This document shows positions 4,620 through 44,617 of a DNA stretch of 64,000 nucleotides, piece by piece. The notes under the pieces were generated by a model, which was not told where the DNA came from, did no database searches, and worked only from the letters and a program-made list of their open reading frames with translations. Made by a program: the position numbers and the translations under genes. Where the stretch lies: positions 7,512 through 71,511 of the forward strand of contig CANQXD010000002.1 in NCBI GenBank assembly GCA_947627755.1, written 5' to 3'. This stretch comes from an uncultured Clostridia bacterium. GTDB taxonomy: Bacteria; Bacillota; Clostridia; TANB77; CAG-508. How positions within the stretch are numbered: the first letter of the stretch is position 1; each line of letters opens with the position of its first letter.

Positions 4620-4701
4620 GGACCTCACAAATGGCAATTTTAGCATTTTTTTGAAGGGGTGTCCCCAGCGTTCCAAAATGGAACGAAAAGGGGCGTCCCT
4701 A
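4620..4701 (-). repeat. GGGAC-core repeat element (type C)
   Basis: Minus strand: TAG GGACGCCCCTTTTCGTTCCATTTTGGAACGCTGGGGACACCCC...ATTGCCATTTGTGAGGTCC. Shares the 22-mer TGGAACGAAAAGGGGCGTCCCT with 57361-57382. Overlaps the histidine kinase stop codon. Confidence 0.8.
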
Positions 4702-16343: not shown

Positions 16344-16376
16344 TAAAAAAACAAGGTTTTACACCTTGTTTCTTTT
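16344..16376 (-). terminator. Rho-independent terminator of spoIIE
   Basis: AAAAAAACAAGGTTTTACACCTTGTTTCTTTT. Lies downstream of the repeat at 16392-16448. Confidence 0.7.
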
Positions 16377-16391
16377 ATTTTTATTATTTTT

Positions 16392-16448
16392 GTACCAAAA
16401 GTGACAGATGTACCAAAAGGAAACGTCCCCAATGGTACCCAATGGTAC
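16392..16448 (-). repeat. GGGAC-core repeat element (type A unit)
   Basis: Minus strand: GTACCATTGG GTACCATTGG GGACGTTTCCTTTTGGTACATCTGTCACTTTTGGTAC. Abuts the spoIIE stop codon and lies upstream of the terminator at 16344-16376. Confidence 0.85.
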
Positions 16449-18941
16449 TTATTTTATTTTGGCGACGATGACTGTCATGTCGTCTTTTGGTTTGCCGTAG
16501 TTGTTGTCGATGGCCTCTTGCAATATGATGTCGGCTATTTTTTGTACGTCGTCGGTTTCTATTTCTTCTAATAGGAATTTTAGCCATAGTTCTTTGTTTG
16601 TGTATTCTTCTGAGGATTCTATTATGCCATCTGTGCACATTACTAAAATATCGCCTACTTGTAAGTCTTTATCGTATACGACTAGGTCTATGTCGTTTAG
16701 TATTCCCGCTGGCAATGATAATGATTTTAGTACTTGTACGTTTCGTCCGTTTTTTATGTATGTTGGACAGGCTCCATTTTTTATGAATTCTAGGTTGCCT
16801 GCGTATAAGTCAAATACTCCCAGGTCTAGTGTGGCATACATTTCTTCTTCGCTTATTGTGTTTAGTGTAGAGTTTATTAGTCTTAAGGATGAGTCTTTGT
16901 CAAAGCCAGAGGATAACAATTTTTCTAGCATTGTTATTGCTGTTTTACTTGCTTTTTCAGCTTCTTTTCCTGATCCTTTTCCATCGCTTAATGCTATTAG
17001 GTATTTGCCGTCTTCTAGTTTTGTTTGTAATAATGTGTCACCAGAAATGATAGATTCTGCTTTGGTTTGTTTTGCTATTCCTATTTGTAGCATTTGCTTG
17101 TCTTGCGCTAAGTAGGTGTATACACATTCTTGTCCTTTTTGTCTAAGGGCACATTCTTGTTTTTGTAAAATCATGTTTTCTCCATATATTTTGCTTAAGA
17201 TTTTGCCCATTTTTTTGACGTCACAAGCTGGTTTTTCTAGTGTTTCACAAGGTTTTGTGTATAATACTACTTTTCTTCTTCCTGATGGTTCTTTTTTTAT
17301 TGTAATGTTTTGTACTTCTATTTCTTTTTCTTGCAATAAGGTTTTTATTTTTTCTTTTTCTTTTTGGTCATAATCTGTGCTTTCTTCTTTTTGCTCTATT
17401 TCATTTGCTAAGTTTCCAATTGCTTTAGATACTTCTTCTAATTGGCTAGATACTGCTTTTTTGTTTTCGTCTAGTTTTTTCTTCCAAATGAAGTTTAGTT
17501 TACTTACTTTATATGAATAGTTTATAGTTTTTACAATTTGCTCAATGTCTTGTTCTACTTTGTCATTGATATATTCTTTTTCATATCCAATAATGTAGTT
17601 ATTGTGCATTGCAAGTGTGTCTAGTAAATCTCTTCTGGTTATTTTTTCTTTTTCTAATAATATTTCAAAAATGTCTTCTAGTAAATTTTCTTCTGGCATG
17701 TATATATCATCAAATAGGATATTTTCTTCCATGCCTTCCATATCATTTTCTAGTTCTTTTTCAAATATATTGAAGTTGTCCTCTTCTTGTTTTTTTAGTT
17801 CTTCTTCGTCTACTATGGTAGCTGCTGCTTCTTGATATGTTTTTGCCATTTCAAAGATAGTTTCTGACATACTATTTAGTCTATAAACTGCTTCTTTATT
17901 TTCTTCTAGTGTATGTCCTGTATTATCTGGTAATAGTTTTACTTTTCCATATAAGTCTTCTATTTCAATTTTTATGCTTTTTGGCACTGCTAGCAAACCT
18001 AAAGATGCAATTAGTATTTCTTGCATTGCTATTAGTGAGTTCGTGTTTCCATTTGTTATGTATGATACTAGAATATTTCCTAATATGAAGCCCATTATAA
18101 CTCCTATTTTTCCTAGACGTTGAAATATTCCTGCTACCATTCCTGAAAGTGCATAAGTTGCAATAATGCTAGGCTCTAGCCCTCCTATTATGCCTATTAC
18201 ACTTCCTATTGTAACTCCTGATGTTGCTCCTACTAAGATGCCATTTTTCCAACCCATTATTAGTACCATTAATATGCATAGTATATTACGAATTGAATAG
18301 CCATAAATACTAACATTTCCGATTGAACAAACGCTTATTGCTACCATTAAACTAGCGCCTAATACTTCCTCTACTGAATAAGCTCTACGTTCTCCTAAGT
18401 TTGTAATAACACTTATACTATTTACAAATATTTTATAGAAGATGTAACTAGCTATACTATAAATTAGTCCAAGTAGTATGTCATAAACCATAACGTCTCT
18501 AAAAAATACTGGTAATACTTGCACTATAATACAGCTAATAAATAAACGAAGTCCTAATTTTCTTTTTTCATTATTTTCTGATTCATATTTTGGAGCTTTT
18601 ACTAATATGCTAACAAATACTAATAATAGTATTAGAAGTACGTTTAGCATAGCTGATGCACCAAAAGATAAACCAGTTCCAAGTAAAACAAGAAGGCTAA
18701 CTATTCCAATTGGAATGCTACTTGCTAAAATTGCAACTAATATTGCTATTCCAAATGGCGCTAGTTCTTCATTTCCTCCAAAACTAACAAAAGAAAGTAA
18801 AAATGACATTATATATAATAGCACCATTTTTTTTGTAAAACATGCTTTTATTACTTCTTTTATTTTCTCTTTTTTATTAAGTTCAACATCCTTTTCAAGG
18901 TTTTGATTTTCCTCAAAGTCCTTTGCTATATTTTGAAACAT
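16449..18941 (-). CDS. spoIIE: Stage II sporulation protein E (PP2C phosphatase with polytopic N-terminal domain)
   Basis: 830 aa with about 10 TM helices, a central regulator region, and a C-terminal PP2C fold (LSDGKGSG...MCTDGIIES...DDMTVIVAKI). Confidence 0.9.
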   Translation of the reverse strand: MFQNIAKDFEENQNLEKDVELNKKEKIKEVIKACFTKKMVLLYIMSFLLSFVSFGGNEELAPFGIAILVAILASSIPIGIVSLLVLLGTGLSFGASAMLNVLLILLLVFVSILVKAPKYESENNEKRKLGLRLFISCIIVQVLPVFFRDVMVYDILLGLIYSIASYIFYKIFVNSISVITNLGERRAYSVEEVLGASLMVAISVCSIGNVSIYGYSIRNILCILMVLIMGWKNGILVGATSGVTIGSVIGIIGGLEPSIIATYALSGMVAGIFQRLGKIGVIMGFILGNILVSYITNGNTNSLIAMQEILIASLGLLAVPKSIKIEIEDLYGKVKLLPDNTGHTLEENKEAVYRLNSMSETIFEMAKTYQEAAATIVDEEELKKQEEDNFNIFEKELENDMEGMEENILFDDIYMPEENLLEDIFEILLEKEKITRRDLLDTLAMHNNYIIGYEKEYINDKVEQDIEQIVKTINYSYKVSKLNFIWKKKLDENKKAVSSQLEEVSKAIGNLANEIEQKEESTDYDQKEKEKIKTLLQEKEIEVQNITIKKEPSGRRKVVLYTKPCETLEKPACDVKKMGKILSKIYGENMILQKQECALRQKGQECVYTYLAQDKQMLQIGIAKQTKAESIISGDTLLQTKLEDGKYLIALSDGKGSGKEAEKASKTAITMLEKLLSSGFDKDSSLRLINSTLNTISEEEMYATLDLGVFDLYAGNLEFIKNGACPTYIKNGRNVQVLKSLSLPAGILNDIDLVVYDKDLQVGDILVMCTDGIIESSEEYTNKELWLKFLLEEIETDDVQKIADIILQEAIDNNYGKPKDDMTVIVAKIK

Positions 18942-39624: not shown

Positions 39625-39722
39625 GCACTCCATTCCTTTAGGGCTTCACTCCATTGGCACTCCATTGGGGACGTTTCCTTTTGGTAGGTCTGTCACTTTT
39701 GGTAGGTTTCACTTTTGGTAAC
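39625..39722 (+). repeat. GGGAC-core repeat element (type A unit, flipped orientation, extended)
   Basis: Plus strand: GCACTCCATTCCTTTAGGGCTT CACTCCATTGG CACTCCATTGG GGACGTTTCCTTTTGGTAGGTCTGTCACTTTTGGTAGGTTTCACTTTTGGTAAC. Confidence 0.85.
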
Positions 39723-40158: not shown

Positions 40159-40193
40159 AATGTCTCTTTAGGAAACGTCCCTAAAGGTACATT
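40159..40193 (-). repeat. GGGAC-core repeat element (type B hairpin)
   Basis: AATGTCTCTTTAGGAAACGTCCCTAAAGGTACATT. Ends 1 nt from the stop of the 40195..40383 gene. Confidence 0.8.
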
Positions 40194-41362: not shown

Positions 41363-43703
41363 TCAAATAATTTCTAAGCCTGCATACTTTGCCATTAAAC
41401 GTTTATGTCCTGCTTTGTCAAAGTTGATGTCTACTTTTGCATCTTCTCCTTCTTTTTCAATGCTGTTTATTGTGCCTTCTCCAAATTTTTTATGATATAT
41501 TCTCATTCCTTCTTTGTATTTTGAAATGTCTACGTCTTGTGATGGTTTGTTTAAAGAATTTAAGAAGCTTTCTGCTGTTCGAAATGCAAAACCATTTGTA
41601 TTTGCTGTTGTTTTATTTCCTATTTTATTAGAAGAATTATTTGCTATACTTGATGCTGCTACATAACTATTTTGTGCTTCTTCAAATTTGTACGTTTTTA
41701 CTTTTCCTGCATAGTTGGTTCCATAAGACCAACCATAGTTACTGTCTTCAAAGGTTTCTTCTTGCTTACTTTCTAAGTCTCCATAGCCTTCTAGATTTTC
41801 TTCTGGTATTTCTCTTACAAAACGAGAAATTGCATTATAACTGGTAGAGCCAAAAATGGTTCTATGTTTTGCACAGGTTAGGTGCAAATATTGCTTTGCT
41901 CTTGTAATGCCTACATAAAATAAACGTCTTTCTTCTTCTAACTCTTTTGGCTCGCCAATAGATTTATAGCCAGGGAAGATTCCTTCTTCCATTCCTACTA
42001 AGAATACAACTGGGAATTCTAGCCCTTTGGCGCTATGTAATGTCATTAAGGTGACACTATTTTCTGTATCTTCTAGGCTATCAATGTCGCTTGATAAACT
42101 AATGCTTTCTAGGAATTCGTTTAAGGAATTGTCTGCAAATTCTTCCTCAAATTCCATTGCTACTGTTACTAATTCTTCTATGTTTTGAAGCCTACTTTCT
42201 GCTTCTACTGTGTTTTCTAGCTCTAAGGCTTTTATATACCCACTTTGCTTTAATACCATTTGAAGTAGTTCTGAAATTTGTAATTCTTCTTGTTTTTGTC
42301 TCATTTCTTCGATTAAGTCGATGAATTCTTTTGCATTTACAGCTACACGATTTAGCCCGTATTCTCCTGCTTTTTTGATTACTTCATACATGGAAAGTCC
42401 TGTTTGATAAGAGATTTCTTCTACATTGTCTAAACTTGTTTTTCCAATACCACGTTTTGGTTCGTTAATTATTCTTTTTAGTGAAATGTTATCGGAAGGG
42501 TTTGCAATTAAACGTAAATAACTGATGGCATCTTTTATTTCTTTTCTTTCATAGAATTTTAAGCCACCTACAATTTTGTAAGGAATGTCCTCTCTTCTTA
42601 AAATGTCTTCAATGGCCCTTGACTGGGAGTTCATACGATATAGGATAGCAAAATCGGAGTATTCAAAGTATTCTTCTCTTTTTAGGTGATTGATTTGCTC
42701 TACAATATACCTTGCTTCGTCGTATTCGTCGTCTCCTTGGTAGATGCATGGAAGATTTCCTTCTTCGTTTTCTGTCCATAATTTTTTGTCATATTTTACT
42801 TCATTGTTTTTGATGACTGCGTTTGCTATTTTTAATATATTTTGCGTGCAACGATAATTTTGCTCTAGTTTGATGATTTTCGTTCCTGGGAAGTCTTTTT
42901 CAAAGTTTAGAATATTTGAAATGTCGGCTCCGTCTAAAGCTATAAATTCCTTGGTCGTTATCTCCAACTACAGTGATGTTTCCGTATTTGGATGCAAGTA
43001 TAGTTACTAAGGTAAATTGTGCTTTGTTAGTGTCTTGATATTCATCTACTAAAACATATTTGAATTTGTCTGTATAGTATTCTAAGGCATCTGGGTTTTC
43101 CGTTAATATTTTTATTGTGTAGTTGATGATATCGTCAAAATCTAAGGCATTGTTTTCTTTTAAACGTTTTTGATATAAAGTATAGATTTCTCCTATTTTT
43201 TCTTTTCGAAAGTCTCCTGCATATTTTACGCAGTATGCTTTTGGTTCAAGCATTTCATTTTTTGCATTGCTAATTTCGGCTAAAACGCTTCTATCCGTAA
43301 ACATTTTGTCATCTATGTTAAGTGATTTTAAACATTCTTTCATTAATGTTCTTTGGTCTGATGTATCAAATATAAGAAAAGAAGAATCGAAGCCAATTCG
43401 GTCTATGTATTTTCTTAAAATGCGCACACAAATAGAGTGGAAGGTTCCCATCCATATATTTTTTGCTGCATCTCCAACTAATTTTTCAATTCTTTCTTTC
43501 ATTTCGTTGGCTGCTTTGTTCGTAAATGTGATGGCTAATATATTCCATGGTGCAATGTTTTTTTCTGCAATTAGATATGCAATTTTATGGGTTAGCACTT
43601 TTGTTTTTCCGCTTCCTGCTCCTGCAATGACAAGGCATGGTCCTTCGGTTTCTAGCACTGCTTCTTTTTGCTTATTGTTTAGTCCTTCTATTAACTCTTG
43701 CAT
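41363..43703 (-). pseudogene. pcrA: ATP-dependent DNA helicase PcrA/UvrD, split into two ORFs by a single-base +1 frameshift
   Basis: ORF 42900..43703 carries Walker A AGAGSGKT up to VVGDNDQGIYSFR, then out-of-frame residues RSRHFKYSKL and a stop. ORF 41363..42967 carries GADISNILNFEKDFPG...QNYRC...VGITRA and the C-terminal Tudor-like tail. Removing the C at 42932 fuses IYSFR-GADI (helicase motif III). Confidence 0.9.
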
Positions 43704-44521: not shown

Positions 44522-44574
44522 GAAACTTACCAAAAGGGACAGATATACCAAAAGGAAACGTCCCCAATGGTACC
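44522..44574 (-). repeat. GGGAC-core repeat element (type A unit)
   Basis: Minus strand: GGTACCATTGGGGACGTTTCCTTTTGGTATATCTGTCCCTTTTGGTAAGTTTC. Nearly identical to the copies at 16392-16448 and 39658-39710. Confidence 0.85.
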
Positions 44575-44582
44575 AGCAAATA

Positions 44583-44617
44583 AATGTCTCTTTAGGAAAC
44601 GTCCCTAAAGGGACATT
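44583..44617 (-). repeat. GGGAC-core repeat element (type B hairpin) overlapping the zupT stop
   Basis: AATGTCTCTTTAGGAAACGTCCCTAAAGGGACATT. The last zupT codons ATG TCC CTT TAG lie inside it. Confidence 0.8.

Follow-up and report, generated by a model that had tools for sequence, protein, structure and literature searches.

The window, the whole stretch of 64,000 nucleotides that was analysed (G000:C2:7512-71511), stems from the genome of a gut Clostridia bacterium (G000; 1.64 Mb, 69 contigs, 28.4% GC). It carries three copies of a conserved element, the Type A unit, which an earlier note had located at the 3' end of spoIIE, in the spacer between cotF and an M23 peptidase gene, and at the 3' end of zupT. 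All three were recovered at these positions, and the flanking genes are indeed those named there (SpoIIE, Coat_F, Peptidase_M23 and a ZIP transporter). A search of the window with the 25-mer CCATTGGGGACGTTTCCTTTTGGTA yielded three exact matches, at 16411-16435(-), 39662-39686(+) and 44546-44570(-), whereas none was expected and 100 shuffles gave no match.

The three copies differ in their state of preservation and in their surroundings (Table 1). Copy 1 occupies part of the interval from the stop codon of spoIIE (16449-16451) to a terminator hairpin at 16349-16371. Copy 2, located after the terminator of the Coat_F gene and inverted with respect to the hairpin upstream of that gene, is degenerate and has partial module repeats on both sides (39625-39661 and 39705-39722); the related genome G012 has only a shorter, degenerate version at this site. 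Copy 3 is found in the 3' region of the ZIP-transporter gene (zupT), upstream of the terminator of that gene, and the zupT stop codon (44605-44607) is situated inside a neighbouring simple hairpin of the same family, which we refer to as Form B. The apex GGGACGTTTCC was found at four further sites in the window (40171, 44595, 60660 and 60802). As a separate observation, the gene of a PcrA/UvrD-type helicase in the same region (41363-43703 (-)) is present as two overlapping ORFs (42900..43703 and 41363..42967), which reflects either a frameshift or an assembly error.

Table 1. Repeat units, hairpins and transposase genes. Positions without a contig prefix are those of the window.
Feature	Position	Strand	Remarks
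Type A unit copy 1	16393..16438	-	2 mismatches to 45-nt consensus
Partial tandem duplicate of the unit's first 10 nt (GTACCATTGG)	16439..16448	-	directly 5' of copy 1
Type A unit copy 2, degenerate	39662..39704	+	5 mismatches to consensus
Form B-type hairpin	40159..40193	-	upstream of Coat_F gene
Type A unit copy 3	44527..44573	-	identical to genome-wide 45-nt consensus
Form B hairpin, simple, loop GACGTTT	44583..44617	-	same family as Type A
Form B-type hairpin with 14-nt tandem partial duplicate (GTACCTTTGGGGAC GTACCTTTGGGGACG...)	60637..60682	+	left member of inverted pair
Form B-type hairpin	60790..60823	-	right member of inverted pair, ~170 bp from hairpin 60637..60682
Type A unit in frame, Mfd	C12:16230-16275
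Type A unit in frame, AddA	C35:9351-9395
Type A unit in frame, GH15-like	C7:8480-8525
Type A unit in frame, U32 peptidase	C28:20266-20364
RAYT1, HUH/Y1 gene, 258 aa	G000:C7:6886-7662		single-copy, outside window, on another contig
RAYT2, RAYT-like, 254 aa	G000:C26:4302-5066 (L042 1102-1866)	-	bracketed by inverted second-family copies GAACAGGAGGGACGCCCCTTTTCGTTCCAAAATGGAACGGTGGGGACACCCCTT

A genome-wide family of hairpin repeats

The three loci on which the earlier note was based turned out to be a large undercount. At ≤3 mismatches the 25-mer has 68 copies in the genome, spread over 30+ contigs, against 0 for the reversed control; an nhmmer profile recovered 61 near-full units of 45-47 nt, and the apex GGGACGTTTCC is present at 112-114 sites. 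The most repeated 14-mers of the genome come from the Type A family, and those of a second family (~40 copies) come next. Among 63 ungapped 45-mers, 9 are identical to the consensus TACCATTGGGGACGTTTCCTTTTGGTATATCTGTCCCTTTTGGTA, 13 differ from it at one position and 8 at two, a spread that fits a recently amplified population. Considering these counts, the control and the presence of the family across the genus, the view that the repeat reflects spread or selection and not chance is well founded.

The Type A unit consists of three CCWTT(T)GG modules arranged around the invariant apex GGGGACGTTTCC, and forms imperfect hairpins. More specifically, two pairings are open to module 1 (TACCATTGGGGAC). 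With module 2 (CCTTTTGGTA) it can close a hairpin whose loop is GACGTTT and whose stem contains two T·T mismatches, and the alternative partner is module 3 (GTCCCTWWTGGTA). Folding of the consensus in single-stranded DNA gave -6.6 kcal/mol (z -3.1) for the form with the TTTT arm and -10.4 kcal/mol (z -5.1) for the form with the TAAT arm. Form B is a 33-nt hairpin (ATGTCTCTTTGGGGACGTTTCCTAAAGAGACAT) that has the Type A apex on a perfect stem (-10.7 kcal/mol, z -6.6). In addition, the units occur as inverted doublets (n=27), which span 104-126 bp between the cores if each arm is a full unit, and one of which folds at -48.9 kcal/mol (z -16.8). The earlier statement that the unit has no strong self-complementarity therefore does not hold. 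That impression arose because GTCAC takes the place of GTCCC in two of the three window copies, which as a result show no better folding than shuffled sequences.

Some doublets are longer variants, of 182-285 bp (~290 bp if the outer bases are counted), that have internal sequence in common. Those of 186-290 bp were observed at C7:12036-12325, C17:8583-8872, C31:7679-7873 and C44:4519-4704, and their common internal sequence (…AAATTTGAAAAAAGCGTATTGAAAGTGATTGAGCTTAGAAAT…) has no match in Rfam. Immediately 5' of the units only a weak A-G preference in base composition was seen, and no clear target motif.

Several further structures accompany the family. Across the genome, ~25 of 85 units have an incomplete tandem copy of module 1, 8-14 nt long, in front of their outer end (in the window at 16439-16448, 39625-39661 and 60637-60650; e.g. 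GTACCATTGG|GTACCATTGGGGACG), and this copy breaks at variable points within the G run; slippage and abortive strand transfer are both possibilities. A sequence of 52-56 nt (GCCTCTGCATAAGTTGTCCGTAACTCGCTATCCGCTCGAACGGTCAACTCAT) sits exactly in the Type A loop, between GGGGACGTTT and CTTTTTGGTA, twice in G000 (C1:45464-45562 and C1:47470-47550) and also at the AddA site of G012, and likewise has no Rfam match. Finally, a third hairpin family (GGAAAGATTTGGGACGTGTCCAAATCTTTCC), perfectly palindromic and with a GGGAC core, was found at C4:20859, C17:10685, C21:15036 and C38:2537, as well as in G012 at the site that corresponds to C10:31761.

Covariation of the stem

One check put forward in the earlier note was to distinguish covariation, as in a folded structure, from strict conservation of sequence. 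In a set of 165 distinct 35-mers, taken from G000 and from the loci of its relatives, the helix between modules 1 and 2 is paired for 76%, as compared to 48-55% for a slid partner and 68.2±0.6% after shuffling. Double-change cells number 150, against 79±6 in shuffled sets (maximum 98 in 500 shuffles). Between species the lower stem reads TACC:GGTA, AACC:GGTT or TCCC:GGGA, and at one orthologous site GTACC…GGTAG in G000 stands against GAGGCA…TGCCTC in G004. The changes in the stem are compensatory while the apex and loop are fixed; therefore the stem covaries, across copies and species alike, and the apex is conserved. Such a combination is as expected of a hairpin that would be recognised by a protein.

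Genomic placement and turnover

The units reside mainly outside genes: 43 of 61 are fully intergenic, though 84% of the genome is coding according to a crude gene map. Only 2 of ~55 lie in divergent promoter spacers; the spoIIE and zupT copies exemplify the many that separate a stop codon from a terminator. Single units have no orientation bias with respect to flanking co-directional genes (8 sense, 10 antisense), which argues against a strand-specific role in RNA.

The occupancy of orthologous sites varies considerably between species. For instance, the spoIIE site holds a Type A unit in G000, a variant in G003 and a second-family repeat in G012, and it is empty in G004, G010 and G014. Many sites that have a doublet in G000 are empty in relatives, or have a single unit or a Form B hairpin instead. 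Copies are thus gained and lost at orthologous sites, where the AT-rich flanks are too diverged to give exact insertion boundaries. At C10:31761-31869 a comparison with G003:C51 gave the following: in G003 the stop codon region (GGAGAATAG) doubles as the ribosome-binding site of the next gene, and in G000 a doublet has been inserted between the two genes together with a new GGAGAA ribosome-binding site. The second GGAGAA could stem from duplication or from later selection.

A number of Type A units are located in frame within long and otherwise intact-looking genes, namely those for Mfd, AddA, a GH15-like protein and a U32 peptidase (Table 1). The intragenic copies are read in several frames, adding peptides such as MYQKGQIYQKETSPKV or VPLGTFPFGISVTFGT, and a diverged in-frame insert in Mfd is common to G000, G003, G004, G012 and G014. 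The Type A unit with the TTTT arm is free of stop codons in all six frames (P 0.006 vs shuffles), and the same holds for the second family (P 0.011).

These data bear on the possibility that the unit serves the host, either as a protein-binding site or as an RNA structure of the 3'-UTR involved in mRNA end protection or termination, and that it is kept under selection and homogenised by gene conversion. The location of many copies between stop codon and terminator, their rarity in divergent promoter spacers, the invariant apex and the in-frame Mfd copy of five species would all be in line with such a function. However, the single units are not biased in orientation, presence, absence and form are swapped at orthologous sites, and copies occur within coding sequence in several reading frames. 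Moreover, Rfam gave no match for the window at gathering score and none at E≤1 for three repeat-rich loci. We consider a host function unlikely as the explanation of the family as a whole. Some copies may nonetheless have been co-opted as 3'-end structures, which is compatible with their being mobile repeats.

Two RAYT-like transposase genes

The genome contains two Y1_Tnp genes. The first of these, RAYT1, is bracketed by inverted GGGACGTTTCC hairpins, one ~130 nt upstream and one overlapping the stop codon, and is directly followed by radA. The RAYT1 ORF (L041 1102-1113) and the ZIP-transporter ORF (window 44605-44617) both end in …MSL*, encoded by Form B (ATGTCYCTTTAG), so that the final codons of both ORFs, stop included, come from the repeat.

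The protein scores 51.8 bits on Pfam Y1_Tnp (cut-off 23) and 69.3 bits on the NCBIfam model REP_Tyr_transpos, under the curated cut-off of 80, and does not reach the IS200 model. The residues H63, H65 and Y122-x3-N126-P127 are invariant in the RAYT1 alignment of 25 homologues. A search of the PDB with the sequence returned nothing, and it was by fold search only that the AlphaFold (AF2) model (pLDDT 87) was matched to 4ER8, the complex of E. coli TnpA-REP with a REP hairpin (E 2.2e-7, TM 0.71 on target); the TnpA proteins of ISDra2, IS608 and IS200 came next. The model includes a confident helical C-terminal part (residues 193-257), and an HTH_23 match (E 0.0055, 16.9 bits) remains below the cut-off of that family. 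A metagenomic homologue that is 62% identical to RAYT1 has been labelled 'REP element-mobilizing transposase RayT' by its source.

The second gene, RAYT2, scores 77.5 bits on REP_Tyr_transpos (cut-off 80) versus 21 bits on the IS200 model. The second repeat family that brackets it has ~40 copies in the genome, two of which are in the window (4680-4699(-) and 57361-57380(-)).

Two other observations concern elements related to transposases. A single TnpB-like ORF is present on a small contig (G000:C62:2757-2939 (-), 434 aa open frame, Cas12f1-like_TNB 37 bits); it is unrelated to the repeats, none of which lies near it. In addition, composite elements of 175-300 bp (hairpin, ATTGATAAGA… and Type A) occur at C1:47424, C36:6609, C4:39000 and the Coat_F locus of the window. 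Their similarity to the region upstream of RAYT1 extends over ~40 AT-rich nucleotides and is no more than a hint that they may be derivatives of the RAYT locus that have lost the gene.

Association of repeat and enzyme across the genus

The genus was represented by 42 genomes, and since the species are related the following counts are to be taken as non-independent tests. An orthologue of RAYT1 with ≥59% identity is present in 15 of the 42 genomes, and the repeat family was found in every one of these (15/15; 17-72 copies). In 13 of the 15 it appears as 17-72 copies of the exact 12-mer GGGGACGTTTCC. The other two have a variant of their own, AGGGACGTTTTC in G014 (47 copies) and GGGGACGTTTCT in G043 (21 copies), and in both cases the variant is identical to the copy that abuts the RAYT gene of the same genome. 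Of the genomes without an orthologue of ≥59% identity, 16 of 17 have ≤3 copies; the exception is G019, with 15 exact-core copies (29 by a relaxed pattern) and no close RAYT1 orthologue in the assembly. More distant orthologues, of 43-47% identity, have another repeat (TTCCCAATTAGGGACAGTCCCCAATTGGGAA) on their flanks and are mixed with regard to the Type A apex. The 19-mer was absent from 16 genomes of other families of the order.

The gene context is conserved as well. In most species radA follows the orthologue directly, and the 3' end of the orthologue bears a full Type A unit; inverted copies of the family flank the transposase gene in G000 and the orthologues of 14+ species. Many metagenomic homologues of RAYT1 read into the unit, ending in …MYQKGQI.QKETSP…. 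The enzyme gene, the copy that flanks it and the dispersed copies show the same species-specific variant across the genus.

The general build of the doublets could also be explained differently, namely by a conventional MITE, a deleted derivative of a DDE insertion sequence (e.g. IS630/Tc1-like, TA-targeting) with terminal inverted repeats of ~45 nt, in which case the RAYT gene would merely occupy an insertion hot spot. Indeed, the doublets have an arrangement of inverted repeat, spacer and inverted repeat, the 186-290 bp variants have a common internal sequence, and TA is present at both outer ends in 22 of 27, as an element that duplicates TA would give. The TA, however, is continued by G...C and belongs to the palindrome GTACC...GGTAC, and a search for target-site duplications found no direct repeat of ≥3 nt around the 27 doublets, only this palindromic TA. 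Furthermore, no DDE_3, DDE_Tnp_1 or rve gene was detected in the 97%-complete genome, a draft of 69 contigs in which insertion sequences may be unassembled. The adjacency to RAYT is conserved, with matching species-specific variants, in ≥15 species. A derivative of a DDE element is therefore improbable. Local gene conversion among a few loci, without consequence, which the earlier note would have favoured had the three copies been the only ones and absent from related genomes, has nothing beyond the three window copies themselves to recommend it and is refuted by the copy number, considering the 68 copies on 30+ contigs and the presence of the family in most species of the genus.

A probable mobile repeat with a candidate cognate enzyme

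We conclude, with a probability that we put at about 0.8, that each Type A unit constitutes one arm of a non-autonomous mobile repeat of the REP/REPIN-like kind, with RAYT1, a RAYT-type and TIRYT-like protein, as its cognate enzyme. A transposition substrate had been one of the live options of the earlier note, to which the transposase gene, being on another contig, was not visible. The pairing of repeat and enzyme gene, the hairpins, the doublets and the turnover at orthologous sites are direct observations. The link between RAYT1 and the family is a genomic association among related genomes, from which we infer the mobilisation. By analogy with E. coli TnpA-REP and with IS200/IS605, RAYT1 would recognise the hairpin in single-stranded DNA, for instance at the replication fork, would cut beside it by means of the catalytic tyrosine Y122, and would transfer singlets and doublets, or copies of them, to new places, chiefly the short spacers that separate stop codons from terminators. 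The three Type A copies of the window are singlets of this population, one being a fresh-looking consensus copy and two decaying. With its ~60-110 copies the hairpin family adds one more case to a known kind of selfish or domesticated DNA and does not amount to a new kind.

Comparison with known systems

Among the known classes, the TIRYT/TIRtron class (RAYT subclass 2.1), described by Di Nocera, De Gregorio & Rocco 2013 (PMC3733652), fits best. According to Quentin et al. 2018 (PMC6006769), TIRYT corresponds to subclass 2.1 of TnpA-Y1, which takes in 291 of 292 sequences of RAYT group 1 of Bertels; the subclass has C-terminal HTH domains, and no REP-like structures were found near the genes. 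Clostridia are among the hosts of group 1 (Bertels 2017). In line with this tentative assignment, RAYT1 is a low-copy HUH/Y1 protein, longer than the classical RAYTs and with a helical, possibly HTH-like C-terminal part, and its gene is flanked by inverted repeats that overlap the 3' end, have a GGGGAC-type motif and are dispersed as singlets, dimers and clusters. The motif GGGGWSAS is fitted at 6/8 positions by the Type A apex GGGGACGT, at 7/8 by the internal AGGGACAG and at 8/8 by GGGGACAC of family 2. There are also differences. The flanking 14-mers have ~62-70 copies in 1.64 Mb here, whereas the frequency of flanking 16-mers was 12 for group 1, versus 57 and 140 for groups 2 and 3 (Bertels 2017); if RAYT1 belongs to subclass 2.1, a structured population of ~60-70 copies would be unusually large. 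Moreover, the repeats are structured, covarying hairpins, in contrast to the lack of REP-like structures that Quentin et al. noted at subclass 2.1.

The REP/BIME and REPIN-RAYT systems of Enterobacteria and Pseudomonas (Nunvar 2010; Bertels & Rainey 2011, PMC3116915; structure 4ER8) resemble the present system in many respects. A Y1 gene, single-copy and syntenic, has on its two sides inverted copies of a hairpin repeat that is dispersed and mostly extragenic, inverted doublets give rise to long hairpins, and the population of copies is quasispecies-like. In addition, two RAYTs are accompanied by two separate repeat families in one genome, and the fold of RAYT1 is nearest to 4ER8. Nevertheless, the GTAG tag is absent, the unit instead starting with GTAC/TACC, and the repeat is 45-47 nt long and composed of three modules, as opposed to a palindrome of 20-40 nt. 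RAYT1 itself has an extra C-terminal domain and stays just under the NCBIfam cut-off for RAYTs, and the host belongs to a low-GC, spore-forming lineage of the Clostridia.

With IS200/IS605 elements such as IS608 and ISDra2 the system has in common the HUH/Y1 fold, the presumed use of imperfect DNA hairpins as substrates and the absence of target-site duplications. In contrast to these elements, RAYT1 is single-copy at a conserved chromosomal site, has no adjacent tnpB, and has ends that are inverted copies of each other and not distinct left and right ends. Small palindromic repeats located in frame within intact-looking coding genes, as found here, are reportedly also represented by the Rickettsia palindromic elements (RPE), said to have been described by Ogata and colleagues in 2000. 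Unlike RPE, most copies of the present family are intergenic and a candidate enzyme is identifiable, and the likeness is one of behaviour. An intragenic location is likewise known for REPs, as listed by Di Nocera 2013 (PMC3733652).

Significance

A more specific interpretation, which we regard as tentative and rather less than an even chance, is that the hairpins would be the natural single-stranded DNA substrates of a TIRYT/subclass-2.1 RAYT, and that enzyme and repeats co-evolve as a REPIN-RAYT system passed on by vertical inheritance within a streamlined lineage of gut Clostridia (order TANB77). Its units would have been moulded so as to lack stop codons in six frames, which would let them persist in essential genes (mfd and addA) in an RPE-like manner. 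The literature on this class records neither a REP-like structure nor a population on the REPIN scale nor any biochemistry.

For the annotation of genomes of this lineage, the family explains dozens of odd conserved intergenic blocks and many contig breaks, as well as short, foreign-looking peptide inserts in housekeeping proteins (…YQKGQIYQKETSP… and …PLGTFPFGISV…). Of the additions made here, the copies in frame and the compensatory variants between species are the most useful. The little-studied TIRYT branch gains a concrete candidate substrate, a hairpin with the loop GACGTTT, a stem whose changes between species are compensatory and, in the Type A form, a conserved internal T·T mismatch, and it appears that the repeats that go with such an enzyme can reach the density of classical REPINs in a small Gram-positive genome.
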